Assembly (NCBI GenBank): GCA_951406725.2
Contig: OX597830.1
Span: 68,014,001 to 68,078,000, forward strand
Reading direction: 5' to 3'
Source of the DNA: Octopus vulgaris
Lineage: Eukaryota
Length of the DNA: 64,000 nt
Shown here: one piece after another, positions 8,952 to 61,665 of the stretch
Position numbering within the stretch: the first letter of the stretch is position 1
Layout: each line of letters starts with the position of its first letter
Notes under the pieces: model-generated
What the model saw: only the letters and a program-made list of their open reading frames with translations
Databases searched by the model: none
Told to the model about the DNA's origin: nothing
Translations under genes and position numbers: made by a program

Positions 8952-9040
8952 GGATCTGGTGGAGCAGCAGACGTTATGGCAACTGTTTACCGAAAATCAT
9001 TTGGATATCTAAAGGAAGAGCATACACAGTTAGATAGACG
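8952..9040 (+). CDS. TRPM: TRPM-family channel exon (N-terminal MHR1/2, SLOG-like GSGGAAD motif): GSGGAADVMATVYRKSFGYLKEEHTQLDR(R)
   Basis: tttattatcag|GGATCTGGTGGAGCAGCAGAC...GATAGACG|gtttgt; 89 nt, phase 0->2. GSGGAADVMA matches the TRPM GSGxxADxxA motif and the phase fits the next exon. Family-level call only. Confidence 0.85.
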
Positions 9041-9301: not shown

Positions 9302-12300
9302 TGTTGTGGAAGAATCCTGAACACTCCCACTTGACTGTATTGATTACTTTGTTAGGGCGATGTGTTTAGGTTTAATATCGTACCCACGTTCAAGTGGCAC
9401 GGGTTCCCTGTAAACAGAATAATCCTGCAATAGGTTATTTTAGATAACCACATGTTAGATATTTATTTGGGTAATACTTTTTGACACCCTGACGTGTAAA
9501 CGCATGTCATAACATTTTTGGCGACGAGATTATTTCGAAGCTCATGCTGGGCAGATTGTTACTAGAACACGGGAAGTTCACCAGCTGCTCTAATTCAAAC
9601 AGAGCAACAAGAACAATGACAGTTGTTGTTGATACAAAAACAGCAACAAAACTAGAAACTGTAGAAGCAGCAGCATCAACGGTTGTTGGGGTTTCAGAAG
9701 CAATAGCAAATCTTAGTACAGCTAATACAGAATAAAATAGAAAATACATTCAGTTCATTCACTCCTGACATGGTCGCAAACTCCATAGGAGAACTCGCAT
9801 ATGACCTAAATGAGGGCAGTAACTTTCCTGCTTACGTTTGAAGGTATAAAGAAATTCTTAGTGAAGAAGGCTTCGACTGACAAGATGAAAAATCTCGACT
9901 CTCATTGAGAAAGTTAGGGCTAGCCGAGATGAGAAATATTGCTGTTACATATTATCAAAGAGACTGGGTGAAGTCTATTTTGAAGAAACTGTGGATACTG
10001 TATCCAAAAGTTTCAATGAAAAATTCTTTATTTGATATGCGCTGGTACTGCATAAATAATACAAAAAAGAGGACGATGATTTTATTACATATGCTGAAAT
10101 TGTTATAAGGGAATGCGAGAGATTTAAAATCAATGAATTACCAAAATTCTTAATTTTCATAGACGGTTTAATGGCAAAGGAAGATGCAAAAATTTGTAAC
10201 TGAATTCTGACTAAATTTGAGCAGAATCAGAAGCTAACACTACAAGGAATAGCTGGGGAATGCTGGAGAATAATAAACTTAAGACATGATAGGAAACAAA
10301 TTGAAGTGATTAACTGCTCTTATATACAGTAATGAAAAGCAGAAAACTAATCCTTATAAAAATCTAAAATGCTTCAAGTATGGTAAAATAGGTCTTACAA
10401 AATCACACTGGACTCCCGTCCACCAAACAATAAACTAGAAAAGAGTTCAATAGAAAAATAATGTCACCACTTTTACGGCGACATGAAATACAAATGAGAC
10501 GCAAAGGAAATTTATGGATGTAAAAATTAATAAGAAATGTAAAATAACAACTAGATACAGGTAATGACTTTACTTTAATTATTGAAAACACATGGAAAAG
10601 AATCGAGAAATCTATGCTACAAAAATCCTCGAAGATTGCACGTGGTGTCTCAGGAATTAAATTAATTTCTAAAGTCAAAATTATCTGTAACGTTACATTT
10701 CGCTGTAAGATTTTAAAGGCGAAATCTTATGTATAAAAAAATACAAGCAATCTTTCTGGGATTGACTGGATGGAACTGTTTGACTTATGGGATTTGCATA
10801 TAAACAAGATTTGTAAAAATGTAATGGAGTCATACGCCAGTTCAAATACAGAGGTAGAAAGTTTTTAAAAAGAAGTGAATAAAGTAGTTCCCTGATGGTT
10901 TTTTGGACAAATAGGATCAGTGCAATAAATTCAAAGCCAAGTTTTAGGTAAAAGAAAATTCATTATTGGTTTTCAAACACACAAGTAATTTACCATTTGC
11001 AACAATGGAACAGATAAATAAAGAATTAGACAGACTGTAAAAAATGAGAGTAATTGGAAAGATTGATTACTCAGGCTGGGCGAGTTCAATAGTATATACG
11101 TTAGAAAAAAGTACAACAAAATACGTGCTTGTGCAATTTTCTCGAAAGGAGTAAGAGAATATTTAAGACAGTATTAGTGCCCGTTACCTATCCCAGAGGA
11201 AATCTTCTCGAAACTGAATTGTGGTAAATTTTTCTCGAAATTAGATCTTTCTGATGCAAATTCAAGTGGAAGATGAATGTTCTAAGCTACTAACAATTAA
11301 TACCCATAAATGTCTGTAGAAATTTACTCGGCTTCTGTTTGGCATAAAAGTTGCTCTAGCTATAATCCATCGAGTGATGGCTGTGATGCTAGCAGAGCGT
11401 GACTTCATAATGGCCTATGTGGATGATATATTAATTAAAAGTGAATCCCGAGATCAGCATGTCACGCATGTAAAATGTGTTTTTGAAAAAGTAAGAGATT
11501 ATGTTTTCAAACTGAGCGAGGAGAAATGCGAATATTAAATATTTAGGACAAAACATTGATAAAAATTGTGGTTGACCAGATCCACCGAAGGCAGATGCGA
11601 TTAAAAATATATTTCACTCCAATAAGTATGTCTACCTTACAATCCTATTATATATACCTGATAATCTATTATGAAATTTATATACTAAATATGCACAAGG
11701 TAACAGCTTTACTAAATAATCTACTAAAAAAGATGTGGAAATGGTCTGAAAATTGTCAGAAGGTTTTCGTCGAAATTAAAAGATATTATCATCAGATTTG
11801 TCTTTAACACATTTCGATCCTGCAGTGGAGATTACAGTACCTTTAGATGTCAGTGGGTACATTATCGGAGCAGTAATGCTACATAAATATGAAGATGTTA
11901 CCATCATGAAGACTGTGGCTCATGCCTCACGTTCACTGTTACAGCAGAAATAAATTACAGCCAAATCGAAAAAGAGGCTCTCGCCATTATGTTTACAGTG
12001 TAAATATTTCATAGATTTTTTAGACCTTATAAATTTTTGACTACAGACATATCATCGTCTGTTATTATCTATATATGGGTCATAGAAAGGAATACCTACC
12101 CATACTGTGAACAGATTGCAATGCTGGGGTATCATATTACTAAATTGTGATTTTTAAGGCGGAGTTCATACAATCTAAACATTTAGGACATACTGATTGT
12201 CAATATTGATACCAAAAATACTGAGCCGTTTGAAGACGCCGTGATTGCTGCGTTGGGAGCGAGAAAAGAAGTTTAAAAATATTCTATGTCATGTCACATG

Positions 12301-14412
12301 TGAATTATCAGTTACATTACAAAACAAAATTAAATTCGGAAAACAATGAATTTATTTAGAAAATGAAAGGAATAGTGAAGGCTGAAAAAATGAAATAAAA
12401 ATATGTGTCTTGCAGAACGCAACACAAATTCGAACCTTTTCTCAATTTGTGACAATGTGTTAATGTACACACAAGGATTAGTAGCGCCAGCTACACTACA
12501 GAAAGGAATACTAAAGAAATTTCACATTGGCCACCCAGGGATTTTTGAGAATAAAATCATTCATCAGAACTTATGTGTATTGGCCAACGATGGACCATGA
12601 CATTGAAGAACTAGTGAGAACATGCAGAGGTTGTGCCCTAGCAGCAAAATCATCAACCACAAAATGGCAACAGATAACCCATTCTCTTGAATGCATGTTG
12701 ATTAAGCAGGGCCACTTAACAGTTCATATTACCTTTTTTGTGGTAGACAGTTCTTCTAAGTGGCTTGAAATGCATAAATGTAAAAAGCCGACATCCCCGG
12801 TTACAGTAAACTTTTTACACAAATCATTCACCGGATATGGTATTCTGAATACCAATGTGTCTGATAATGGAACTCATTTTACTTCAGACAAGTTCAAAAA
12901 ATCTTGTAAAATGTTCGTTATCTAACTTGTGACTACGCTGACGTATCAACTAATGTCAAATGGACAATCGTTTTATCGATGCTTTTAAGAGTGTTTTAAA
13001 AAGGCGAACAATGAAGTAATGGATGACCTAACACTTCAACAATTTCTATGAATGTACCGAGTAACACCTGTAGTGACCCTATAACGGTGCGCGCGCGCGC
13101 ACCGTCCATTTGTATTTCGCGCGTGTTGGTGCCTTTACCAAGGCAGAGAAAGGAAGGGCCCTCTCGCGCATGCGCGAACCACCGGAAGCACGACCCTGGC
13201 TGAGGCAAGGGGGTCGTGGAACGTTTGACCGCTGGCAGCAGCAGCGGCGACTTTGAGACATGGCTATCGAAGGCAACGGTCGCGATATATTTTCTCTCCG
13301 TTCGAACTAGCTTCTAGCAGTCCTTACCAAAAAGGTTTTAACCAAATTGTTGCAGACCAACATCGTCTCCATTGTTCGACGCCATTTTGACCCGTTCTGT
13401 TTTTGGCAGCTGAATATTGTAAATATTACAATCGATTAACTTTCAGCCTTGCGCGCCCAGAACTAAGGACATCAGATAACACACTTATTGTTATTGTTAC
13501 CAAGAAAGAGAATAAAGTAGTATATATATATTTTACGTCTGCGTCTTGTTGTTTCTGACGGGTAGAGAATTCTGGATTATTAAAGCAACGGCTAGTGAGT
13601 GATTGCTTTCTTGTACCCCGAAAGTACAAGACAAGATATTCACTCACATTAAGCTCGTTACACACCTAATCCCAAACCCCCGTCTGGAATGTTACCTGCA
13701 GAATTAATGTTCCCCAGAAAGTTTAGATTCGTCTTTGACAAGTTGTTACTGAATAACATAGCAAACAATAAATATAATTCAAAATATCTCAAGATAGCTG
13801 ATATAGTTTTCTTTAAAGGGTAAAGAAATGTGGCAGGGCAGTGTGATTACTAAAGAGATTGGAAAAGTGTTATCTTTGGTAAAAGGTAAAAATTTTGAAT
13901 ATAAAAGACAAACCTGCTTAGAAAACGATTTACGGAAGAAACGGCCACGAGAGAGGAAATTCCCAAGGAAGTAATTTATATGTTTGAGGTACCAACACTT
14001 AAATAGATTGAAACCACATGTCCAAGTGCCAGAAAAAGGAAAAGAACCGAACCACTGGAATTAGACCCTAAACGTAAAAGATATTAAACTCCGTATGAGT
14101 TTAATTCTTAAAAAAGGAAGATATGGCAGAGTCGTGAACACCCCCTCCCACGTGACTGAAAGTGGACTAAAGGATTTCAATGAGTAAGAACTGTGAGAAC
14201 TGTCAAGGCAGTTGACAGTGTTGGTCGACTCTATTGGTTACTCTGTTAGTGCGACGTGTGTAGGTTTAATATCGTTCCTACATTCGAGTAATATGGAGCG
14301 CATTCCCTGTGAACATAATAATTCTGCGATAGGTTATTCTACACAACCACATTCCAAATATTTATTTGGGTAATGTTATTTTACAACCAGCGTGTACATG
14401 CATGTCATAACA
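9302..14412 (+). mobile_element. Degraded full-length Gypsy (Mag-like) LTR retrotransposon
   Basis: Diverged LTRs ~9302-9514 and ~14122-14412, both ending GCATGTCATAACA. PBS TGGCGACGAG at 9519; purine tract before the 3' LTR; remnants of protease (QLDTG), RT (AYVDDILIK), RNase H (YSQIEKEALAI) and integrase (HIGHPG, YWPTMD, VSDNGTHFTS). Near-TSD AAGAT/AAGAA. Confidence 0.88.
13069..13662 (+). mobile_element. Young solo LTR nested in the Gypsy integrase
   Basis: TGTA...TACA termini, CACC duplicated on both sides, CpG-rich, AATAAA at ~13511. Excision restores the host integrase YRVTPNP. Confidence 0.85.
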
Positions 14413-14740
14413 AAGAAGGAGACTCAGAAAGACAAGGGGTGATGCTTTGGGGGCCAGTCTCAAGTTGCTGATCCTTGGAGATGTCAAAGGGCCAAGATAT
14501 TTAGCACCTTGCTGTGCTTGAGAAAGCCTGCCCACCACAGCAGAACTAATAACCTACTCCTCTGGCACATGCTTGTTCGTGAAAAGCTCTACCTCACCAC
14601 AATTCCCACTGCCTCAGGAAACTTTTGCCTCACATTTCATGTCCTACGCTCATCACTTGTTTATCCCTGATATTATTCCTCTACTATAATAGGCAATTAT
14701 TATGTACCTCAACTTTCGTCATTTCTCCATTCCAGTACTT

Positions 14741-15111
14741 CCCAGAAACACTTCCTTTCCTCATTATCTTCCTCCAGCCATGCTCTCTCTCTCTCTCTCC
14801 TCCCTACTCAACACAAATAGAACCATTTCTTTGTCTCATTATCTTACTTCAATCATTCCTTAACTCCTCTCTGCTAGAATCCATCCTTAGAAAGTTTTCC
14901 TTTCCTTATCTTATTCCACAAACTTCCACTAATTTCACATTTCCTCCCCCATTTATAACCACTTCTTTCTTTAACTTTCATTACTTTCACTCTTCTCCAC
15001 CTCCAAGAAGTACTTCCATTCCTAATTATCTTCCTCCAGCCATGATCCTCTTTCCTCTGCTAGACTCATACTTAGAACCACATTCGTTACACATTCTGTT
15101 CTTCTAGCTAT

Positions 15112-15145
<34 letters not shown>

Positions 15146-16140
15146 GTTAAACTCCGTCTTTAGATCCTCTTCCATTCTTCATCCCCTTCTTCCATCCATG
15201 CTCTGCCCACCTCACCACAGTTAGACTCTTTCCTTAGAACCACTTTTATTTTTTCTCCATTTTCCTCCAGTGACACTCCCTGTTTCTGCTGCTAGACTCC
15301 ATCTTAGAACCACATTCTTTCTTCATTATCTTCCTCCATCCATGCTATATCGTCCCACTTCTAGACTCCATCCTCAGAACCATTCCCATTGGTCTCTATC
15401 TTCATCCAGCAACATTCTCTTGCTCCTCTGCTAAATCCCATCCTCAGAACAACTTCCTTTTCTCGTTACTATCCTCCAGACATGCTGCCTCTCACCTCTC
15501 CTGGATTCCATTCTCAGCACTAATTCCATTTCGCTCTGTCTTCCTCCAGTCATCCTCCCTCACCTCTCTGCTAGACTCCATTCTCATAACTTCTTTTTCT
15601 CATTATCTTTCTCCAGCTATGCTCAATTTTCCCTCTACTAGATTCTATGCTTAGAACCACTTCCTTTCCTCATTATTTTCTTCCACCCACACCCTCTCAC
15701 TCCTTAGCTAAACTCCATCCTTAGAAATATTTTCTTTCCTCATTAACTCTCTCCAGGCATACTCTATCTCCCTTCTGCTAGACTCTATCTTTAAAACAAC
15801 TTATTTTCTTCATTATATTTCTCCAGCCATACTCTTGCTTCCCTCTGCTAGACTTCAAATTCATAACCACTTCTATTTCTTTCTATATTCCTCTCTTCTT
15901 TATCAGACTCTTGTCTTAGAACCACTTGTTTTTCCTCTCTATATTCTTCCTCTATATTTTTCCTCTCTATATACTTTCTCTCTGTGCTCTGCTAAACTCC
16001 ATACATAGAACCACTTCCTTTTCTCATTATCTTGATTAAGCCAGGCTCTCCTCCCCTCTGCTAGACTCCTTCATTAGAACCACATCCATTTGTCTCTATC
16101 TTACTCCAGCCATTCTCACTCTCACATCTGCTGAACTCCC
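14741..16140. repeat. Pyrimidine-rich minisatellite, ~58-60 bp unit, roughly 20+ diverged copies
   Basis: Recurring unit CTCTGCTAGACTCCATCCTTAGAACCACTTCCTTTTCTCATTATCTTCCTCCAGCCATGCTC. Confidence 0.9.
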
Positions 16141-16513: not shown

Positions 16514-16704
16514 AGCATTCCTACTGAGATATGACATCAGAAGGGCAATTAATATTGCCTCTAAGGATTATTTCAATAGAATGAAGAAAATTGAGCTGTT
16601 AAAATATGTGATTGAGTCCCTGAAACACCTAAACTTGCTAACTGTTTACAATATACACTCAAGTGAAGACTTTGATGTGGTAATCAAGAAGGCTCTGATC
16701 AAAG
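16514..16704 (+). CDS. TRPM: TRPM-family channel exon: AFLLRYDIRRAINIASKDYFNRMKKIELLKYVIESLKHLNLLTVYNIHSSEDFDVVIKKALIK(A)
   Basis: tttgtctttctag|AGCATTC...ATCAAAG|gtaata; 191 nt, phase 2->1, open frame. LLTVY...EDFDVVIKKALIKA matches the TRPM LxTVf...DxDxAILxALLKA motif. Confidence 0.9.
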
Positions 16705-19709: not shown

Positions 19710-19804
19710 CAAAGAATGGATTCAAATATTTGCCGTTTTCATCGGAGTGGAGAGAAATTTATGGACACCTGAATGACCTACTTACAGATGAGATTCGCTT
19801 ACAT
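19710..19804 (+). CDS. TRPM: TRPM gene exon: (A)KNGFKYLPFSSEWREIYGHLNDLLTDEIRLH
   Basis: atgttacag|CAAAGAAT...TTACAT|gtaaga; 95 nt. Only the phase 1->0 frame is open, exactly the phase required by the upstream exon and by microexon A1. Confidence 0.8.
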
Positions 19805-24300: not shown

Positions 24301-24378
24301 GGTGGTATTTGAGGGGAAACATATATATATATATATATATATATATACGCGAGAAAGAAGCAACAAGAATGGATAGGT

Positions 24379-24469
24379 TTTTAGTACAATCGTTTCATAC
24401 AAGGACAGGCTTTATTAAAAGTTGCAAAAATTACAGCATATAAACGTGTCCCGTACTCATCAGCTAAAA
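24379..24469 (-). ncRNA. Type I hammerhead ribozyme motif, antisense copy in left palindrome arm
   Basis: Reverse complement of 25063-25153. Confidence 0.7.
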
Positions 24470-25062
24470 TACATGTTAGTTCTCTAGACATCCTAGTGGT
24501 TGAGGCTATACTCATGAGGTAATGTAGATAATTAAGTAACATAAACAGATTTCCAAAGTTCATTAAAGTTCTTTAAAGATGATGTATAGTCTTATCACAG
24601 AATTTTAAAAAAGTTTTAATAGCATCACAGAGAAGGTGACCTAATCCATAGTGCACATATGAATTTCCAGAGATATGAGGAGGGATTACATACTCACAGA
24701 CGACAAATTTATCCATTGTTAATCACAACGAGGTGGGTCTCAATTCCTGCTTATTAGCATTACTAATAAGCAATGCTAATAAGCAGGAATTGAGACCCAC
24801 CTCGTTGTGATTAACAATGGATAAATTTGTCGTCTGTGAGTATGTAATCCCTCCTCATATCTCTGGAAATTCATATGTGCACTATGGATTAGGTCACCTT
24901 CTCTGTGATGCTATTAAAACTTTTTAAAATTCTGTGATAAGACTATACATCATCTTTAAAGAACTTTAATGAACTTTGGAAATCTGTTTATGTTACTTAA
25001 TTATCTACATTACCTCATGAGTATAGCCTCAACCACTAGGATGTCTAGAGAACTAACATGTA

Positions 25063-25153
25063 TTTTAGCTGATGAGTACGGGACGCGTTTATATGCTGTA
25101 ATTTTTGCAACTTTTAATAAAGCCTGTCCTTGTATGAAACGATTGTACTAAAA
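25063..25153 (+). ncRNA. Type I hammerhead ribozyme motif (Penelope pLTR type)
   Basis: TTTTAG-CTGATGA-GTACGGGAC...GTCCTTGTAT-GAAA-CGATTG-TA-CTAAAA: intact core, stems I and II pair, palindrome-like stem III. Predicted cut after A25147. Confidence 0.75.
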
Positions 25154-25591
25154 ACCTATCCATTCTTGTTGCTTCTTTCTCGCTTATAATCACCCCACAT
25201 TACTGTTTTGTTAAAACAGTATAGTTTTTTTTGGTGCATCTAAGTTAGGTACCATATTCAAGTAAATTCATTTAAATTAACTTGAATCTTTATTGCTTTT
25301 TATATATATATATATATATATACATATATATTATTGTATCTAGGGAGAGTTATTTTCTTTTAGTGCCTTGTTAATTCAACACATTCACCAGTCTGATTTC
25401 CACTCAAATTTTCGTTGCGCCTTGCATCTTTTTCAGTAGTTCTTGATTCTGTTTCATCGGAATTGCGTTTTTTAATTTCTTTTTAAACTTGTACACATGC
25501 GTGTGCACATACTCATATGTATGTGTGTATGTATGTATTTATATATATGTATGTATGTGCATATCTCTACCAGATACAAAAGCGAAATATA

Positions 25592-26629: not shown

Positions 26630-26661
26630 GATCTCCATTTGGAAGTCTTTGCTACACAGAG
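26630..26661 (+). CDS. Microexon A1 (32 nt, phase 0->2): DLHLEVFATQ(S)
   Basis: atttcttttatttccag|GATCTCC...ACAGAG|gtaatgcaag; flanks homologous to five other A copies. Confidence 0.8.
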
Positions 26662-29645: not shown

Positions 29646-30391
29646 ACAGCAGCAACAACAACAATAATAATTCTCCACTTTCTTTATACCGTCTACCCAA
29701 CTATACCATCAACCATTTACATTATCTTCCCACTTTCTATGTCTGTTACCGTTATGGCCTGAAAAATTTCATTGTATTTTCCTTAATTTCTCTCATCTGA
29801 TGAAAAATAACAGCTGATATTTGAAGCATTGATGACTATGTGTTATGAAACAATAAATATAAGTAATAATAGCCATATAGATTCTGTGGATCTTGGTGAA
29901 TTGCAAGGTAACAATGAAACTGGTCAGTCTGGACATAATTTCACAGAAACACTAAATATATATGGATATGGTTTGATATATCTATTTAATAACTAATGTT
30001 GTTTTGGGACTGTTGCTATATTGTGACTGATGTTATATTGGAAGTGTTGTAAATATATATTTATCTGTGAATAGATCTATTTTTTAAGGTACGATTCCTC
30101 TCATTTGTTACTTGTCTCTGTTACAAATAGTTTCTCCATCTTTCTGCCATTATTACACCTGTCACTCTTCTCTGGCCCAATCATTCTCTCTGGGTATAAC
30201 TTTTCACCTGCCACACAATTCCTTTAATTTTACTTCCTTTCCCATTTTCTTGAGTCCATTTTATGCAAAAACACAATTTTTCTTCTATTCCTTACTTTCA
30301 GTTAAAAGACAGACTGAAATATTAAACTTTAGGCTCATCATGATAAATTCGCTTTACTAATCTGCAATTTTCACATTAACAGATTATCCAG

Positions 30392-30434
30392 TGACTTAGA
30401 TTATGATGACGATTTTTTCATGGCAAGACAAATG
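30392..30434 (+). CDS. Microexon B1 (43 nt, phase 2->0): DLDYDDDFFMARQM
   Basis: ttactaatctgcaattttcacattaacagattatccag|TGACTTAG...CAAATG|gtaagt. Confidence 0.82.
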
Positions 30435-32319: not shown

Positions 32320-34200
32320 AATATGTGTGTGTGTGTGTATGCTTTTTATGCGTTTCCACATTTTTCATCCAATTTTGATGATTTTTTTTTTATTAAATGG
32401 CAAATTTACCCAGGCAGATCACTGCTACATTACCGATGCCTACAGATACACCCTTCTAGGATAAAATTCGATAAAACTGAAGTGACCCCACCACACACAC
32501 ACCTTTTGCAAAAAATGGTTAAAGTTGCACCTGAAAAGTTTTTACAGGAACGTCCCATTTTTATAATTTTGGTGTCAACAGGACCGTTATGTTGTGACAT
32601 TTCAAACAAATATTCTGGCACTACCTTGGGGTTTCTGATTCCCAAGAAAATTGCGAAAAACTTTGAAAAAAATTGATTTTTCGCAATTTTGCAAAATTAC
32701 ACGGTAGAAAACTTTTTACTGGAAAGTCCAATTCCTTTGGTTTTACAGCCAAAAAACCACATGTAATAGCAGTTCTATCAAGTGTCTGTTCTATGTCCAA
32801 AGGCATCCCTGTGACAAAAACACATAAAACTGAAAAAATCGATTTATTTTCAAGTTTTGAATCTTGAGAGCAGCCAGGGTGTCTACTTCTCCAGCTGGCA
32901 CAAGAACCCATGGATACCGTGCTCACTGCCTTCTTCAAACTATGCGCAATGACCCCTTTGCCAAGACACTCCTGTATCCTCAGGTTCCATCATATTACAT
33001 TTGGAAAAAGAAAACACACATTTGGGAATCAAGAAAACAAGGACAACCCATCGTGGGACAGCCAAACTTAAAATCATGTACCCCACCCTTGGAAGAGTTT
33101 ACACAGTTTGCCCTAACCAACAAGAATGATTTTACTTTTGCCTACTGCTGCATGAGGTCATGGGACTGACATCTTTTGACAACCTGAAAAACTTCAAAGG
33201 TGAAGTTTTTACTACATACTGCGAGCCTGCTGTAAAGCAGACTGCTAGAAGACGACGCTCAGTCTGACGCAACAATGGTGGAAGCTGTTACAATACGCTC
33301 AGCGAGGAGTCTTCAAAAACTCTTTGCAGTGCTATTGCAAACATGTGAACTCAGTGATCCTGTCACCTTATGGGAGAAATACAAGGAAGACCTTTCAGAG
33401 GACTACCACCACCAAGAACAACTTCTGTTGCCACTTAAACATCAGTTTCAACGATGAATTCTTCAACAGAGCACTCGACATTGAGGGCAGCCTACTTACT
33501 GCTGGCGGTAACGATCTTTCATTTTATAGTCTACCAAAAGTCAGCAGAACGAGCTCACACATACTACCAATATGCGTTATTCAGGAAACAGCCTCCGACA
33601 TCGATGCTCTTCAATAATACATCGACGGAACTGAGCCGAGGTTGCTTCAGGACCAGCAGCACACATACAGCGCTGTCTACACTTCCATTCGTGAATGCAA
33701 AGGTGGTATTTTCTTTTTAGATGTCCCAGGAGGAACTGGTAAAACATTCGTGACTAAACTTCTCCTTGCAAAAGTACGCCAACAAAAGGAGATCTCTTTA
33801 GCTGTAGCTTCTTCTGGAATTGCCATGACTCTACTGCCCGGGAGTAGGCTGGCTCATTCGATCTTCAAACTCCCATTTAATGCTTCTGTGTCCGACTCAG
33901 CCACCTGCAATAATACAAAAGACTCTGGCAAGGCAGAAGTGCTACAAAGGTGCCAGCTCATTGTTTGGGATGAATCCACCATGGCACATAAAGGATCCCA
34001 TGAAGCACTGGACAGGACCCTGAAAGACATCAGGGGCTGCATTAACCCCATAGGAGGCATTTCCCTCCTGTCTAGTGATTTCAGACAAACCCTATCCATA
34101 ATTCCAAAAGGCACCTGAGCCGACGCTGTAATGGCTTCATTATTTTATCTTTCCTGTGAGAGGACGTTACAATTTTGACTTGTACAACAAGCGCATGCAT
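32320..34200 (+). mobile_element. Helitron remnant (Rep/Pif1 helicase)
   Basis: DPFAKTLLYPQVPSYYIW, LQKLFAVLLQTCELSDPVTLWEKYK, GIFFLDVPGGTGKTF...AVASSGIA..LLPG..AHSIFKLP...LIVWDE...DFRQTL. Confidence 0.88.
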
Positions 34201-35106: not shown

Positions 35107-36305
35107 TCAGCATGACTCTCTATTACACATTAAGTGAACGCTTAATCAGTCATGTGGCTTTTCTTTTCACATGTTCCAGGATGTCACTTTGTGTAGCAAC
35201 AGTACCATCTCAAGTATATGAGAACTACATATTTGATGGTTTCATATGAGCTTTATAGAGGGTCTGTAGAGTTGATGGGGATGAAATACTGTTTGGTTAT
35301 GAAGAAGAAGAAGACCAGTTTATTCAGTATTATTTTTTTTCTATGCAAGATATATTTTTGTTTGTTACAAGAAGTCTTCGGGTATGGTGAGGCCATGTTG
35401 CTTTAGTAACCATCAGTCTTGGAATATTTTCTTGATAGGTTTAGAGAATGTCTCTTTGTGCTTTTCATTGGAATATGACTAAATTATTCATGTTATCTGT
35501 GTAGGGATCTAAATTTTATGTAAATTAAGGTGAAATGTATATCTCTATATATCTCTAGTATCTCATCCAAGATCTGCCAATGCATGAAAGGAATCAGATA
35601 CAGAGCAAAGTTACCAAACAAGGGCTTTGACTGCTCAATATTTTTTTCAGCTATATTCTGTCAGGAATATGTTGTATGGAATCATGATTGTGTTCTTCTG
35701 GGAATTATTCAGATGCCTTATGGAATGATTTGTTCCAGTTGCAATTATTATCAATCTGAGAGAGAGGTTGTTTGGAATTTTGATTTTAAAATGTTAATCA
35801 GGGCTGTAGGTGCAATTTTCTTTCAAGGTACGTCAAATAAAAGATCGTCCAATACATGAAAATTAAATGACTATTCAGTAACATGACCTTTTAATTGTTC
35901 TCTATTTACACTCTTTTATCTCTTCTTTTTAGTCATTTTTAAAGCTAGTTGTGGGGTATTGTATACATTTCTAAGTCTCATATGACTTTGAATTTTACAC
36001 AAAAGTTTAAATTGATTAAATAAAAATTCTCATATCATCATTTGACACTGTTTTTAGTTAAAAGATTTCTTCCATTCAAATCCTATGTCAAAACCAGTGT
36101 ACTATGCCAAAACTATAAATAAGAAAAAAGAAATCATGTGTATCTGTGATAATATGGATTGCATAATCTCCATCAGATAATTGTCACTACTCTCACCTGT
36201 TGTACTATTTATATTCAGTAAGGTCTTCCCTCAGTATAATTTGTTGTAACAAGTTGGAATTCTGTCATTCCTTCTAACGTTCAATATCATTTCTTTTAAT
36301 TTCAG

Positions 36306-36337
36306 GAAGATGAAATGGACAGCTCAGATGAAGAGAG
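36306..36337 (+). CDS. Microexon A2 (32 nt, phase 0->2): EDEMDSSDEE(S)
   Basis: atttcttttaatttcag|GAAGATG...GAAGAGAG|gtaatgcaag. Confidence 0.83.
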
Positions 36338-36799
36338 GTAATGCAAGAAACATATGCCTAAATCTGTTAATATATAAGTACATATATATATATATAGCAG
36401 GGTTCCAATTATGGTGTATAGGGGATCAGCTGAGATTATCCCAGTAATTAGAGATATCTGATCAGTTGAGATTATTTCAGTTATTAGCAAACAAAAACCT
36501 CTCCTGGAAATGTTGATAATTTTAAAGCAATGAGCAAGGGAGATTGTTGATTTCCTTGTAAATTATTATCTCATAATATGATGGATATGTATACTAAATT
36601 GCTATACTTCCAAATCTTACTCCATTAGAATATTGGTATTATTGATGAATAGTAGAAGGATGGAAATCAACAGAAGGCACTAAAGAATATTTGTTTGGCA
36701 TTTAATATAATAATCCATCATTTCTCTAGGTTCATATCTCTTAAGGCAGCTATTTCATTAATAATGCTGATCAACAAAATTCAAATTTTTTGCTGACCT

Positions 36800-37458
36800 A
36801 TGCACTAAAGAAAGGACCAAACAAAGGGTCTCAAGCTGCCAGATCCTTCTTTTCCAGACTGGCTGCTTCTTAGCATCTTTCTGGCCTGGAGTCTAAAGTC
36901 ACTAATGACTAGTCTATGCTGGGGCTACATTTTTCACCAGGGTGGGTCTTTGCATTTAAGAGCAGTCATGCATCACGCAGTCTGGTGAGAATGAAATCTA
37001 TCTGCCTAACAGAGTCACCTAAGTAATAGGTTATCAGGTGGCTGGCTGGCTTCCTGAAGTTGGTGTTGGAGATCAAAAAGTTATTTGCATCACAGAACTC
37101 CAGTCGCCTTGCTCCCTCTTCGCTTCAGGGACCAATTCCATGGCCCCCATGAACACGATGGTAGATGCTGGGCTGCCGTCCAACATGCCCATTGAAATCC
37201 CCAGTCATGAATATGAGATCATTGTCACTCATCTTGGAGGTAGCCTGCAGAAGAATATCATAAAAGTGGTCCTTCTGTTCATTTGGTAGGCCCACTTGTT
37301 GGGTGCAGACAGATATAATTGTAGCTATACTATTCTGCAAGACTAGCCTGAGCATAAGTACTCTATCACATACTCTAACTACTTCTATGATCTTATCCAC
37401 CCATTTCTCAGTTAGGAGTATGCCCACATGACCAACTCCATCACTATTACCTTCCCAT
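36800..37458 (-). mobile_element. RTE LINE endonuclease fragment
   Basis: GILLTEKWVDKIIEVVRVCDRVLMLRLVL..IISV..QVG...FYD...GDFNGHVG. Confidence 0.8.
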
Positions 37459-37908
37459 GTGTGTACGTGTGTGTGTGTGTGTAAATAAATCTAATTTTAA
37501 GTGTGTGTGTGTGTGAATAAATCTATTTTTAAAGTATGGTTCCTCTTATTTGTTACTTGCCTCTGTCACAAATAGTTTCTCCATCTTTTCTCCCACTCTT
37601 ACAATTTTCAGTATATTCCTACTTATCTTTCTTTGAGAAATTGCTTTTTTCAAACTACTGCCTTAATTTCTTAGTTTCCTTTACTCCTTGTTCACCTCTC
37701 ACCTTTCTTCTCTGATCCAATCACTCTCACTGGGTATAACTTTTCAGCTGCCATACAATTCCTTAAATTTTAGTTTCACTTCCATTTTCTTGATTCCATT
37801 TCATTCTTTCTTTCAGTTAAAAGATAAAGACTGAAATATTAGACTCTAGCCTCATAATGACAGATTCACTTTACTAATCTGGAATTTTCACATTTACATA
37901 TTTTGCAG

Positions 37909-37948
37909 TGACTTAGAACTTGATGAATATTTCGAGCAACTAAAAAGA
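37909..37948 (+). CDS. Microexon B2 (40 nt, phase 2->0): DLELDEYFEQLKR
   Basis: ttactaatctggaattttcacatttacatattttgcag|TGACTTAG...AAAAGA|gtaagt. Confidence 0.83.
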
Positions 37949-40405
37949 GTAAGTCTTTTTTTAACTTTTAAATTTTGATTTATTTTTGTTGTTTTCATAA
38001 ATTGTGATAAATGAATTGTTGAGAATTTCATCACTGGATTGTGTAAAATGAACTTTGCATATCCTCTTTGTGAATATTTTCATATATTTCCTCACATTGG
38101 TACAAAATGCTTCTATTAGGTCATAAAGTATGAAATTTGTAGAAAAGAAAAAGTTTGCTCATGTTTTATAAATACAAGGAATAGTTTTATTCATCAAGGT
38201 ATGCACCTATATTGTCAATACACTTTTGCCATTTTAGTGGTAGCTTGTCAAGCCTGGAACTGTAAAGGCCTAGCAATCTAGAGAAATAATTAGTACTGCT
38301 TATAGACCAGGGACAAATAAATAAGACCTGTGCATAGAAGAATTTTATCAAAAAGTATAATGTAATAAATTTTAGACACGAACAAAAATTAAGATGTTTA
38401 CATAAGAAGGGAAATTAATTTTACACAATATAAATAAGTGCTAAATAATCAATCATAATATAATCAATCGAACGATATATTTTGAAATAACTGACTCTAA
38501 GAAACAAATGAGAAATTATCCAATCAATTCTTGGAATTCAAAATAAAGTTCACATCTGAATTAACGTTTAACACCACTTTATTTAATGTAATACTAAAAT
38601 TAACATGAAACTTTCACCAGTTCGATCAGAAAGGATATCACAATGAAGACCTTCAAGAAACTGCACCAGTATTACAGTAAAGTTACAATTACAATGGTTA
38701 CTAACCAATGTAATGGAAACTTTTGTAGGTCAATATTCAGTTGCATTTAAATCAAAATGAAAATTAAAATTCATGAAATGCTACTTCATACCTCTTTATA
38801 ATAATAATTGTAATAATATTAAAAATAATAATAATTATTATTATTATTATTATTATTATTAATATATAAAGGATTGAGGTAACTCCTTCAGATATAGAAG
38901 CAAAAATAAAAGAGTGTCATTGTCATCATGTGAAGGATATTTTGACATCTTGTGACTTGATGACAATGACACTCTTTTTTTATTTTTGCTTTTATTATTG
39001 TCATTATTATTTTAATTATTAATTTATATTAAAACTCCAGGAAACCTACATGCTTAAGGGTAATCTATTTGGAATAAACCAATGGAATATATCTCTAAAT
39101 TCTTATCTAATAAGAATCATAACAGAATTTATATACTAATCATCGAATTTAATCAGGTTTTCAAAAATTATGAGGAAAACAGTAAACGTTTGGAGAAATA
39201 CCTTATAACATACCTCTTTATATATATATATACACTTATATGTTTTCTCCCCCTGCACTCATGTGCCATTTTGTATCATTAATAAAGTTGCCTGCATTTT
39301 TGAGGACATAGGTATGCTAGTGTATAATACTTTTCATAACTCCTGTATTGTAGGCCTCTACCACATCGTAGAAATTCGGTGATTATTATTTTCTGTGTTA
39401 TTCTACTTCATAATGAGTATTATAAAGCTGCACCAATAATGGCAGAAATACATTTCTGTTTGTTACGAGAGGTCTTCAGGGATGGTGAGGCTTTAATGTT
39501 GCTTTAGTAACCATCAGTGTTGGAATATTTTCTTGATAGGTTTAGAGAATGTCTCTTTGTGCTTTTCATTGGAATATGACTAAATTATTCATGTTATCTG
39601 TGTAGGGATCTAAATTTTATGTAAATTAAGGTGAAATGCATATCTCTATATATCTCTAGTATCTCATCAAGATCTGCCAATGCATGAAAGGAATCAGATA
39701 CAGAGCAAAGTTACCAAACAAGGACTTTGACTGCTCAATATTTTATTTCAGCTATATTCTGTCAGGAATATATTATATAGAATCATGATTGTGTTCTTCT
39801 GGGAATTATTCAGATGCCTTATGGAATGATTTGTTCCAGTTGCAATTATTATCAATCTGAGAGAGAGGTTGTTTGGAATTTTGATTTTAAAATGTTAATC
39901 AGGGCTGTAGGTGCAATTTTCTTTCAAGGTACGTCAAATAAAAGATCGTCCAATACATGAAAATTAAATGACTATTCAGTAACATGACCTTTTAATTGTT
40001 CTCTATTTACACTCTTTCGTCTCTTCTTTTTAGTCAATTTTAAAGCTAGTTGTGGGGTATTGTATACATTTCTAAGTCTCATATGACTTTGAATTTTACA
40101 CAAAAGTTTAAATTGATTAAATAAAAATTCTCATATCATCATTTGACACTGTTTTTAGTTAAAAGATTTCTTCCATTCAAATCCTATGTCAAAACCAGTG
40201 TACCATGCCAAAACTATAAATAAGAAAAAAAGAAATCATGTGTATCTGTGATAATATGGATTGCATAATCTCCATCAGAAAATTGTCACTACTCTCACCT
40301 GTTGTACTATTTATATTCAGTAAGGTCTTCTGTGTATAATCTGTTGTAACAAGTTGGAATTCTGTCATTCCTTCTAACGTTCAATATCATTTCTTTTAAT
40401 TTCAG

Positions 40406-40437
40406 AAACATGGAATAGGCAGCTCAGATGAACAGAG
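40406..40437 (+). CDS. Microexon A3 (32 nt, phase 0->2): KHGIGSSDEQ(R)
   Basis: atttcttttaatttcag|AAACATG...AACAGAG|gtaatgcaag. Confidence 0.83.
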
Positions 40438-41171
40438 GTAATGCAAGAAACATATGCCTAAATCTGTTAATATATAAGTACATATATATATAGCAGGGTT
40501 TCAGTTATGGTATATTGTAAGCTGCGATTATCCCAGTAATTAGTAAACAAAAATTTTTTTTTGGACAGTGGCACCCCAAAAACAATAAGTAAGGGAGATA
40601 ACAAAGAATATTAGTTTTTTTATTGATTTCTATATACATCATTTCATATATGTTTGAAATATACTATATTGCTACTCTTCCAAATTCTACCCGTTTAGAT
40701 CACTGGTACTATTTGCAAATAGCAGAAAGAAATTAATAAAAGGTTTAAAAAATCCAAAATTTGGTTAGCCTTTAATATCCATCATCTCTCTACACTTATT
40801 TCTCTTAACACAGCTATTAACAATTTTAACAATCACACACAATTTTATTGGTGAAAGAAATTAGATTCTGTGATATTGATTTCTTTCTCTATTATATGAA
40901 GAAAAGATTTATGCAAATTAACAGAAGTTCGAACTGGTTTGTGAACTCTGTGGAAATTCATAGCTTTTACTAATAATGATTTTAATCATATTCATAAACA
41001 GTGTGAGAAGGGCAGAGAGAGTGAGGACATGAAAGAAGGATGGAGGGAGAAAGAGGGAGGAAGAGAGAGATAGAGTCAGAGTAGAGAGAGAGAAAATAGA
41101 TAGATTGATCGACAGACATACATACAGACAGGCAGGTAGGCAGACAGACAGAAAGACAGACAGACAGATAG

Positions 41172-46699: not shown

Positions 46700-48430
46700 T
46701 TTTTGAAATGTAATGTGTCTTGAATGACACAACAGGCCAGAGTGGACAATAATAGCTGTTAAATAATTTAATTATTCATAGTCTAATATAATATTTTGGA
46801 ATATAAAAATTCATTCTTCAGATATTGCTCGGAATTAATCGAGTCACTGTTATAATCAGTTTTCCAACGGTTACTGAATTTTTTTTTCGGAAGTGTGTCT
46901 GTAGTGGTCTCACGAAGCCCCTTCCAAAATTTCTTTTGAGAAGTGCACAAAGGCAGCCCTGTCTTGAGTTTATGTGTGTTGGCATTTCCGTAGCGCTGCT
47001 TCTAAGTTATGTATTATACATGCATTCTTTTTATACATAAGCATGTTACCATTGTACATGCAGGATGTCAATGTAGTTAAATAATAGTGATTGTTAATTT
47101 CCAATCTGTTGTTAATTTGAGGCCCCTAGTCTGTCTATGAGGATAGCTTCTTTAATTCTTAAATTTCCTAAATTTCTGTCATTGGCTTCAATTGTGACTG
47201 TTATGCTTTTGTCTGGAAGTTTTCTCAAAGAGGAGACTCACGTTTAGATGTTCTTTGGTGCAAATGTGTAATCTACACACCGAAAAACCTCCTCAGCTAT
47301 TGACCAATGCTTCCAGCACTGTTGACCAAGAGAAGAAACGCCTCAAACTTAAATTCTTGTAGCTTTGTACCAAATACTGCCACAACTCAGTCTATTACAC
47401 TGACACAGATGAACGGGACATCCACTGATCAAGATAACCCTAACATCAGGGGCACCAGCATACCATCAACAATGAAACACCTAGTCACACACTTGAGTGG
47501 GTCACTCTCCCATGAAGAGCTAGAACTCATCAGTCTGGGCCCTAAATTTATCTTGAGCCAACAGCCGAACGAGAAAATCTTACTCAACCTGGAAGCCTAC
47601 CTTTTCCTGAACAGCCGATCAACTCAAATGGCAATTGGTAATAAAGAAAAACAGCAACAACACACTCAGCAAATTTCCAACGTACCAACTAGACCACCCA
47701 CTCCCTCCCCTCAACAAACCAAGAACCCAACCACAAACTATCCGCGACACAGATTTATGCCAACGAGTAAATGCTGTGTATAGAATCCAATGTAACAAAT
47801 GCAAAAATTTTTAAGTGGGTGGCACAACCAGACTGTCACACATTCGCATCAAAGAATATTTAAACACGTGAGCCTCCTCCTTGAGAAAACATCTGGACAG
47901 ATGCCAGAACACCGACAAAAACATAACAATCACAATTGAAGCCAATGACAGAAATTTCAGAATTAAAGAAGCTATCCTCACAGACAGATTAGGGCCCAAA
48001 ATTAACAACAGGTTGGAAATTAGCAATCACTATATTATTTTACATTGACATCCTGCACGCACAATAGTAACATGCTTATGTATAAAAAAATGCACGTATA
48101 ATACATAACTTAGAAGCAACATTGTGGATATGCTAACACACATAAGCTTGAGACATGGCCACCCTCAAGCACTCCTCATGAGGAATTTCAGAAGGAGCTT
48201 CATGAGACCACTGCAGAGACACTTCCAAAAAAAGAAAAAAAAAATCAGTAACCGTTAGAAAACCGATTATAACAGTGATTCGATTCATTCCAAGCAATAT
48301 CTGAAGAAGGAATTTTTATATTCCTAAATATTATATTAGACTATAAATAATTAAATTATTTCACAGTTATTACAGTCCACTCTGCATTGTTGAGCCATTC
48401 AAGACGCATTACATTTCATAAAGCCTGAAC
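46700..48430 (+). mobile_element. Penelope-like element with inverted 3' duplication (arms ~46720-47280 and ~47800-48420)
   Basis: Diverged inverted arms; VYRIQCNKC...VGGTTRLSHIRIKE GIY-YIG remnant; LISLGPKFI; decayed hammerhead core CTGAAGAAGGAAT..ATTCC(T)AAA at ~48300. Confidence 0.75.
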
Positions 48431-48502: not shown

Positions 48503-48530
48503 ATCAGCTGACGATTCATGGCTAGAAAAT
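48503..48530 (+). CDS. Microexon B3 (28 nt, phase 2->0): SADDSWLEN
   Basis: ttactaatctggaattttctcattttctgatcttgcag|ATCAGCTG...GAAAAT|gtaagt. Confidence 0.82.
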
Positions 48531-49827: not shown

Positions 49828-49859
49828 GAACCTGAAATAGACCAACTATTCACAAAAAT
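49828..49859 (+). CDS. Microexon A4 (32 nt, phase 0->2): EPEIDQLFTK(I)
   Basis: ctttctcttattttcag|GAACCTG...ACAAAAAT|gtaatgcaat. Confidence 0.8.
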
Positions 49860-53358: not shown

Positions 53359-53410
53359 ATTTACGAATATTATCTCATCTGGTCATTCAGGATATAAATA
53401 TGGATATAAG
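53359..53410 (+). CDS. Microexon B4 (52 nt, phase 2->0): FTNIISSGHSGYKYGYK
   Basis: ttaccaatctggaattttctaatttactgattttacag|ATTTACG...TATAAG|gtaagt. Confidence 0.82.
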
Positions 53411-56939: not shown

Positions 56940-56971
56940 AACATTGTTAAATACAGCAGAGAAGAAGAGAG
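56940..56971 (+). CDS. Microexon A5 (32 nt, phase 0->2): NIVKYSREEE(S)
   Basis: atatcatttcttttgttttcag|AACATTG...GAAGAGAG|gtaatgcaag. Confidence 0.82.
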
Positions 56972-60514: not shown

Positions 60515-60590
60515 CTATACGAATAGTTTACCGTTTCAAAGAACTATCTCATACTGTATTCCAAACTTTCCACTAAAAATACCTATATTG
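60515..60590 (+). CDS. Small exon B5 (76 nt, phase 2->0): YTNSLPFQRTISYCIPNFPLKIPIL
   Basis: ttactaatcaggaattttctcatttacttatttaacag|CTATACG...ATATTG|gtaagt; open in the required frame. Confidence 0.82.
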
Positions 60591-61624: not shown

Positions 61625-61665
61625 GATGATGTTCAGGAATTGGTACAGGAAGACATAAAATTGAG
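61625..61665 (+). CDS. Microexon A6 (41 nt, phase 0->2): DDVQELVQEDIKL(S/R)
   Basis: caatatcatttcttttatttgcag|GATGATG...TTGAG|gtacta. The acceptor is homologous to other A copies, but the donor differs and an alternative GT at 61643 is possible. Confidence 0.62.

Follow-up and report, generated by a model that had tools for sequence, protein, structure and literature searches.

Exons diverge more than their introns in a predicted multi-SLOG TRPM-beta channel gene cluster of Octopus vulgaris

TRPM channels are usually slow-evolving genes with a single N-terminus. In those of the TRPM-beta or TRPM2-like type (human, zebrafish and Nematostella TRPM2; PDB 6mix, 6drj, 6co7), the SLOG domain (MHR1/2) is accompanied by MHR3/4, a six-helix channel and a TRP helix, all of which recur in the octopus gene described here. 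Human TRPM2 binds ADP-ribose through Y295, R302, R358 and the helix after GGPGT, according to the available text of PMC6759353, and the Nematostella mutants Y264A and R329A, whose positions probably equal human Y295 and R358, lose more than 1000-fold in potency (PMC7201885, also available in part). TRPM expansions in bivalves, vent gastropods and choanoflagellates, like the octopus genes, form local clusters of recent paralogues with variable domain content (10.1101/2024.05.23.594666; 10.64898/2026.06.15.732245); in their accessible text these studies cover gene number, with few TRPs in octopus, and contain nothing on SLOG repeats within a gene or on exons that diverge more than introns. Two TRPMs have been counted in O. 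vulgaris (PMC13402157 Table 1; PMC12919962; both accessible in part), and an accession search in the PMC13402157 supplement gave no matches. Our literature search, mostly of titles and listings and without supplementary figures, returned no report of tandem-SLOG TRPMs or of positive selection on octopus TRPM. Here we analyse 64,000 nucleotides (nt) of the O. vulgaris genome (G000:C17:68014001-68078000, the window), whose plus strand is predicted from exon-by-exon homology to carry the middle of one copy, W, of a TRPM-beta (TRPM2-like) channel gene.

The translation GSGGAAD of a plus-strand exon at 8952–9040, which we took to be a TRPM channel motif, led to a search with PF18139 (SLOG in TRPM) that found 106 genome matches, six on C9 and the others on C17 or C60. 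This 89-nt exon (S4e5; 25 genome matches, 12/89 nt different from copy Ge) closes an SLOG/LSDAT (MHR1/2) module and matches CAI9735608.1 (P0133), the public model of the window copy; public O. vulgaris models, themselves predicted, agree with our exons one by one. Pfam searches returned no family in three of three single window exons, nor in P0133. Copy Ge (C17:79.26–79.48 Mb) corresponds to CAI9735657.1 (P0001), with the order SLOG, micro-exons B1–A6, SLOG, PF25508 (MHR3/4) and Ion_trans, and its 79.34–79.44 Mb segment, free of assembly gaps, links module 4, the linker and module 5. MHR3/4 also lies 3′ of the linker in copies Ga and Gf, and the MHR3 start of its module is all of MHR3/4 visible in W before a gap that also cuts off the channel. 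Ion_trans in P0001 and five close transmembrane (TM) copies points to a six-helix channel with a TRP helix, and the closest solved structure is human TRPM2 (E 2.8e-94). Among predicted models of other species, O. sinensis XP_036366207.1 has three SLOG stretches and then A1–A4, and O. bimaculoides XP_052830018.1, classed as TRPM-beta in Table S1 of PMC13143021 (available in part), has the complete chain (162 residues, 39 acidic and 21 basic) and then SLOG and MHR3/4.

Instead of a single melastatin N-terminus, models P0001, P0129, P0174 and P0175 have 2–4 LSDAT stretches, and genomic order gives 4–5 SLOG modules per subunit, so that the cytosolic N-terminus of the octopus TRPM-beta channel is predicted to be a tandem array of SLOG (MHR1/2) plus partial-MHR3 modules. 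In an 18-row tree that contained no TRPM-alpha or TRPS row, the modules of octopus grouped as a single clade (100/99) with single-SLOG octopus paralogues as neighbours, so the array stems from internal duplication. Three single-SLOG TRPM genes at G000:C17:42.9–43.1 and 44.25–44.33 Mb are its likely source lineage. Among ten proteins scanned from the best 150, several SLOG stretches occurred in three octopus models, one jellyfish protein and one sturgeon record. The two SLOG domains of the jellyfish protein, a Sanderia malayensis TRPM model (P0180), may reflect an independent duplication or a model fusion, and the sturgeon record (P0178, seven LSDAT stretches) carries the flag UNVERIFIED_CONTAM and was excluded because it is likely mis-assembled.

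The modules also differ from TRPM2 at the ADP-ribose site. In our alignments modules 4 and 5 have S, P or L at position 295 and G or Q at 358, and GGELET, GGKRET or GDKMET replaces GGPGT, W and Ge differing within that loop; module 3 has S and K at the Y295 and R358 positions. The fused module 1/2 (P0129), which combines the half carrying the aromatic residue and R with the half carrying GGPGT/GR, keeps the aromatic residue, R, GGPGT and R, as in the single-SLOG paralogue P0177. We infer that the glycine loop and arginine are retained in one module, which in four copies is the first, and lost from the later ones. PF25969 (NUDT9H) was absent from P0001, which ends soon after the channel, the genome past the last modelled exon not having been searched. 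Unlike TRPM2, then, the octopus gene would have 4–5 SLOG plus MHR3 modules per subunit, an acidic linker encoded by micro-exons, a model without NUDT9H, later modules with replaced ADP-ribose-site residues, and 5–7 recent copies with an excess of non-synonymous (dN) over synonymous (dS) divergence. Since it departs from TRPM2 in its several N-terminal modules, in NUDT9H and in the canonical ADP-ribose site, we do not call it TRPM2 but file it as a putative TRPM-beta variant.

Between two of the modules, a scan and self-comparison of the window identified a plus-strand chain of 11 micro-exons in the order A1-B1-A2-B2-A3-B3-A4-B4-A5-B5-A6. A exons have lengths of 2 mod 3 and B exons of 1 mod 3, which makes each A+B pair frame-neutral and leaves the chain open; it is predicted to encode an acidic linker of ~150 residues between tandem SLOG modules, before the last one. 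The window thus has at least 14 coding exons, and the order A2-B2-A3 is common to other copies and species. A1 (26630–26661, 32 nt, phase 0 to 2) is identical in W and Ge, while B1 (30383–30434) has two tandem acceptors, which give either 52 nt from 30383, the choice made in the public models, or 43 nt from 30392; no separate 9-nt exon was found for the residues RLS, which correspond to the second B1 acceptor. A2 (36306–36337), B2 (37909–37948, 40 nt) and A3 (40406–40437) are followed by B3 (48503–48530, 28 nt; one variant in five copies), A4 (49828–49859, 32 nt; no variant in five copies), B4 (53359–53410, 52 nt), A5 (56940–56971, 32 nt), B5 (60515–60590, 76 nt) and A6 (61625–61665, 41 nt), which leads into the next SLOG module. 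A6 shares homology with the 41-nt exon lying ahead of the first SLOG module, which makes it probable that the linker grew out of an N-terminal segment by expansion. Public sequencing data searched with three sampled words of B5 gave 24 entries, 20 of them with part of this sequence, and no RNA data set was listed, which speaks neither for nor against expression. Of the O. bimaculoides isoforms P0005 and P0002, one has 13 residues inserted between A1 and B1, which hints at alternative splicing in the linker; a homologue of the corresponding 39-nt alternative exon (isoform X1) was sought between A1 and B1 of the window and not found.

Exons and flanking introns were then compared across module 4, the linker, module 5 and the channel. 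A set of 31 exons with 2–8 positional copies each was assembled from matches of at least 86% identity that spanned the exon; cross-matches between A2 and A3 (<700 nt) or S4e4 and S5e4 (<90%) were dropped, as was every flank column with a gap 5 nt or less away. In this set 312/3068 exon positions were variant compared with 401/13167 flank positions; flank rates computed without the gap-column filter agreed (1.9% and 2.1%). Fourteen of the 31 exons exceeded the flank rate at P<0.01, and five (A1, B3, A4, B4 and A6) did not exceed it. Since long alignments of W and Ge differ by 2.1% over 56281 nt, the flanks are not unusually constrained. The most divergent exon was M4a, the MHR3-start exon at 16514–16704 (191 nt, located by tblastn of P0005), which differs from Ge at 38/191 nt and has 48/185 variant positions against 13/472 in its flanks (three copies). 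The second MHR3 exon, M4b (19710–19804, 95 nt, present in P0133), differs from Ge at 18/95 nt, with 19 non-synonymous and no synonymous variants in three copies. At the protein level, M4a+M4b differ at 40/94 residues between W and Ge, 25/86 between Ge and O. bimaculoides, and 2/94 between Ge and O. sinensis. B2, in turn, had 12/37 variant positions against 26/431 in its flanks (seven copies).

Codon likelihoods located the strongest signal in cytosolic segments. For the module-4 end plus MHR3, the MHR2/3 border, the dN/dS ratio (omega) was 4.1 (P=2e-4), with dN 0.335, dS 0.081 and a flank rate of 0.030, and counts in the MHR3 exons gave 60/214 non-synonymous against 4/56 synonymous changes (P=7e-4). 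Omega was 2.75 for the last MHR3/4 (P=0.007), 2.5 for upstream W–Ge (P=0.005) and 2.1 for all 19 W–Ge exons (dN 0.101, dS 0.048, flank 0.019; P=0.009), and for module-4 exons 1–3 it was 1.5 and not significant. Across five channel ends, the pore/S6 exon was variant at 1/133 positions and the TRP-helix exon, cut at 118 nt with its donor not located, at 21/118. All 12 substitution types were raised in exons, with no AT-to-GC bias.

This pattern had first been proposed, in a preliminary description, from A2 and A3, and most of its counts hold. The two 32-nt exons, each between AG and GT, differ at six positions (1, 4, 8, 12, 14 and 28), all amino-acid replacing (E/K, D/H, E/G, M/I, D/G, E/Q); their upstream introns (35395–36305 and 39496–40405) differ by 14 substitutions in 908 columns plus four indels, in line with the ~2% first estimated, and the first 48 nt after the donors are identical. 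The proposed Fisher test of exon (6/32) against flank (14/956) gives P=2.0e-5, and the probability that any 32-nt window contains six of the 20 substitutions is 0.0025 (100000 permutations). There is indeed no synonymous change among the six, but this does not serve as a sign of selection (P=0.26–0.43 by chance), because just 13–20% of possible changes in these exons are silent; similarly, five of the six do fall on acidic A2 codons, which is no enrichment (P=0.42), as seven of ten A2 codons are acidic. The remark that other A copies are diverged while their flanks align holds for five of nine old pairs (exons 50–59%, upstream flanks 22–27% different) but not for the four A5 pairs, whose upstream flanks are unalignable. 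Nor do A2 and A3 form a very recent duplicate: their identity is limited to a ~990-nt tract, outside which 16–28% of columns differ in 100-nt bins, so that A2/A3 is better described as an old duplicate that carries a ~1-kb conversion tract. The pair is a real though weak instance of the gene-wide pattern.

Twelve A2/A3-type units were compared to place this tract, which extends over 35395–36385 on the A2 side (intron, A2 and 48 nt) and 39496–40485 on the A3 side (A2-type sequence within an A3-position unit). The A3 exon and post-donor bases are of a type of their own in Ge, Ga and Gb, whereas A3 of W is of the A2 type at all 11 diagnostic sites (5/5 in the exon, 6/6 post-donor). Because 80–700 nt downstream of A3 the W sequence is again of the A3 type (2.5% from A3 of Ge), the tract must have crossed the A3 exon, and we conclude from this site pattern that an A2-type tract of ~1 kb overwrote, by gene conversion, the intron, exon and donor side of A3 in W. 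Conversion that spared the exon, one of the explanations first put forward, is thus refuted for A3. The A3 exon of W, also present in CAI9735608.1, has four private bases, absent from the other 11 units and each changing the amino acid, with no private base in ~350 nt of intron; another unit, Gb_A2a, has eight private exon bases and six intron ones. Over the 12 units 25/32 exon sites are variant compared with 54/343 intron sites, and the upstream introns are mosaic (213/561 site pairs incompatible, PHI-like P=0.024; 10 units, leaving aside Ga_A2, which has a gap, and Gd_1, which has an insertion). A2 of W is near-ancestral, with 1/10 residues different from the O. bimaculoides model, and the peptide net charge goes from −7 in A2 to −1 in A3.

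The window gene belongs to a cluster with at least 5–7 near-identical copies or copy fragments on the same chromosome, which differ by ~2% in introns and by 3–10 times that in many exons. Match order and strand imply seven 5′ halves, four of which (including W and Ge) have modules 1/2-3-(4) and three have separate modules 1, 2 and 3. Module 5 with MHR3/4 occurs in three copies and there are five close channel ends, two of them 24–40 kb after module 3. At G000:C17:69.458–69.469 Mb (L015, L016) three tandem A2-B2 units have identical A exons and the rest of the chain is absent within 50 kb, so linker length varies between copies. Copy Gb (G000:C17:67.76–67.78 Mb, L008–L010) contains one additional A2-B2 pair; its A exon and A3 of W differ at 15/32 bases, with an intron difference of 2.3%.

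The probable explanation, to which we give roughly two chances in three, is diversifying selection on cytosolic surfaces combined with conversion that homogenises introns. Conversion among copies would keep introns alike, positive selection would change the parts that face the cytosol (the MHR2/3 border, the MHR3/4 helices, the TRP helix and probably A2/B2/A3), and purifying selection would hold the pore. Diversifying selection had been suggested for the micro-exon peptides themselves; it finds support gene-wide, in the MHR3-coding exons, but not from the six A2/A3 changes, and not significantly in the linker. Several observations weigh against the explanation. Linker omega is 0.95 (W, Ge and Ga) or 2.1 (W and Ge), neither significant, and module 5 gives 0.97, also not significant; in the linker, exon divergence clearly exceeds that of introns but not clearly that of silent sites, so part of it may go back to an older ancestry of the exons. 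Only four of the eight codon sets, which overlap and assume a star tree, reach P<0.01, and two do so after multiplying by eight. Silent sites in exons diverge ~2.5 times as much as introns, four pooled TM exons show no difference between non-synonymous (0.078) and synonymous (0.065) sites, and in 42/176 variant columns both alleles occur in other modules, so that these may be borrowed, compared with ~21 by chance. As assembled, five copies are broken: Ge has an M5e exon of 88 rather than 89 nt and an in-frame stop in a TM exon, Gb an M4b of 94 nt and a damaged B1, Ga a B4 of 53 nt, Gn an S4e2 of 163 nt and G44.4 a TM1 of 247 nt. Five assembly gaps of 100 N interrupt copies, and W is cut after the exon that follows A6, before the last SLOG and the channel. 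Finally, no single public model has all modules and the channel; of 1874 proteins with 1641–4685 residues, the best 120 included none from an octopus.

Some of these observations would be expected if there were no positive selection, with conversion homogenising introns and rarely fixing across exons, or importing exon pieces from older modules, so that exon divergence is simply older and neutral or constrained. The raised dS, omega near 1 in the linker and SLOG5, the borrowable columns (twice chance) and the intron mosaicism all agree with such a process, but A3 was not spared by conversion, 134/176 variant columns are absent from the other modules compared, dN in the MHR3 exons is four-fold above dS, and the neighbouring exons A1, A4 and A6 have no variants. 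We therefore regard it as an improbable full account, although it probably plays a part alongside any real selection and could by itself account for the linker exons. A release from constraint as copies die off (birth-and-death pseudogenes) would fit the five copies with frameshifts or a stop; since relaxation can lift exon divergence at most to the intron rate and not 3–10 times above it, it is contradicted as sole cause, and with W open in all 19 exons seen and a pore exon below the intron rate it is very unlikely. We give as little credit to a mutational bias confined to exons, such as GC-biased conversion, which is able to mimic selection, or back-templating of A-to-I edited RNA. A>G changes are indeed frequent on the sense strand of exons (48/1071, compared with 17/828 for T>C; 49/4185 and 55/4699 in flanks) and account for two of the six A2/A3 changes, but the exon-over-flank excess is 3.0-fold for AT>GC, 2.3-fold for GC>AT and 3.0-fold for GC-neutral changes, all 12 types are raised and A>G makes up 48/274 exon changes. 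GC-biased conversion or an editing-type bias as main cause was set aside as unsupported by this spectrum.

An assembly artefact, in which haplotigs or mis-joined repeats generated the copies and exon differences such as the four private A3 bases were consensus errors, is unlikely, if a little less so than relaxation or mutational bias. The gaps that cut copies, the frameshifts in five copies, which could be indel errors, and a W–Ge intron divergence within what we take to be the range of high heterozygosity are compatible with it. Errors, however, have no reason to favour certain exons, preserve the frame and spare the pore; S4e1 in six copies and TM exons in five are more than two haplotypes; O. 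sinensis models have their own A2 variants; and A2 and A3 stand in tandem in four copies here and in two other species, which removes the suspicion that the pair is a mis-assembled haplotype. Were W and Ge alleles, the exon excess would persist as balanced polymorphism. As for the toxin cassettes first envisaged, the notion that the A/B exons are cassettes of secreted venom or neuropeptide precursors of the octopus SF1 type has practically nothing left to recommend it. For it one could cite the acidic spacers, a single KR end in B2 and the C-terminus ...KIPIL of B5, which recalls neurotensin-type peptides. SF1 genes (octotensins and tachykinins) are likewise an octopod-specific multigene family in tandem arrays, expanded in O. 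vulgaris and O. sinensis (10.64898/2026.02.02.703354, available in part). In the same partial source, however, SF1 genes encode secreted precursors with open reading frames mostly split between two exons, and octotensins have a terminal RRPYIL. The window gene instead spreads over its many coding exons and shares no homology or motif with them; neither RRPYIL nor a tachykinin motif between basic cleavage sites occurs in any chain exon translation, and models of three species place the chain in frame between TRPM SLOG domains. Gene structure and SLOG context thus rule out an SF1/octotensin identity.

Exons that vary while introns are conserved are usually seen in arms-race genes. In snake-venom families (ASSET, PMC2474615, available in part), as here, introns are similar among paralogues while exon segments differ sharply and surface charge is altered, although the octopus gene would encode an intracellular ion-channel domain rather than a secreted toxin and its changes are mostly point replacements. 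With 4–5 SLOG modules, one keeping ADP-ribose-site features and the others not, the gene most likely encodes a cation channel whose gating depends on a diversified array of cytosolic sensors. As a candidate driver we rank first molecular conflict with intracellular pathogens or parasites, the modules acting as alternative ligand sensors or baits, since variation lies on the cytosolic side and copies arise and decay fast; within the reading of selection plus conversion this would carry somewhat under half of the weight. Sensory tuning to chemicals or temperature, ranked second, is a possible but less favoured candidate, and others share the remainder. More speculatively, and rather doubtfully, the octopod TRPM2-like channel could be a variable immune-type receptor: a tetramer with 16–20 SLOG clamshells, one an ADP-ribose-like reader and the others sensors or baits for pathogen nucleotides or effectors, with copies reshuffled by conversion. 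If so, the altered pockets, the fast-changing MHR3 surfaces and the charge-tunable micro-exon linker would be extra sensing parts. In either case, a cluster of 5–7 copies in which the ligand-sensing region is multiplied, with an exon-over-intron excess like that of toxin or immune genes, is a candidate for a conflict or sensory system in octopus, and its natural series of SLOG pockets may help to tell which nucleotide signals animal SLOG domains read.

Other elements in the window lie in its introns or close to the exons described above. A remnant of a long terminal repeat (LTR) retrotransposon spans 9333–14412, with integrase fragments (PF17921/PF00665) at 12515–12922 and direct repeats of ~185 nt at 9333 and 14227, and the intron before M4a contains, at 14740–16140, at least about eight copies of a 70-nt pyrimidine-rich minisatellite. 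At 24344–25188, after a (TA)n run, there is an 846-nt near-perfect palindrome (98.8%) that is absent from Ge, where its flanks are contiguous, and that is likely a recent foldback insertion. The B1–A2 intron harbours a Helitron-like remnant at 32400–34150 that includes part of a PIF1 helicase (PF05970, E 3e-42). Just upstream of B3, segments 46700–47269 and 47838–48422 form an inverted repeat of ~600 nt with 81% identity.

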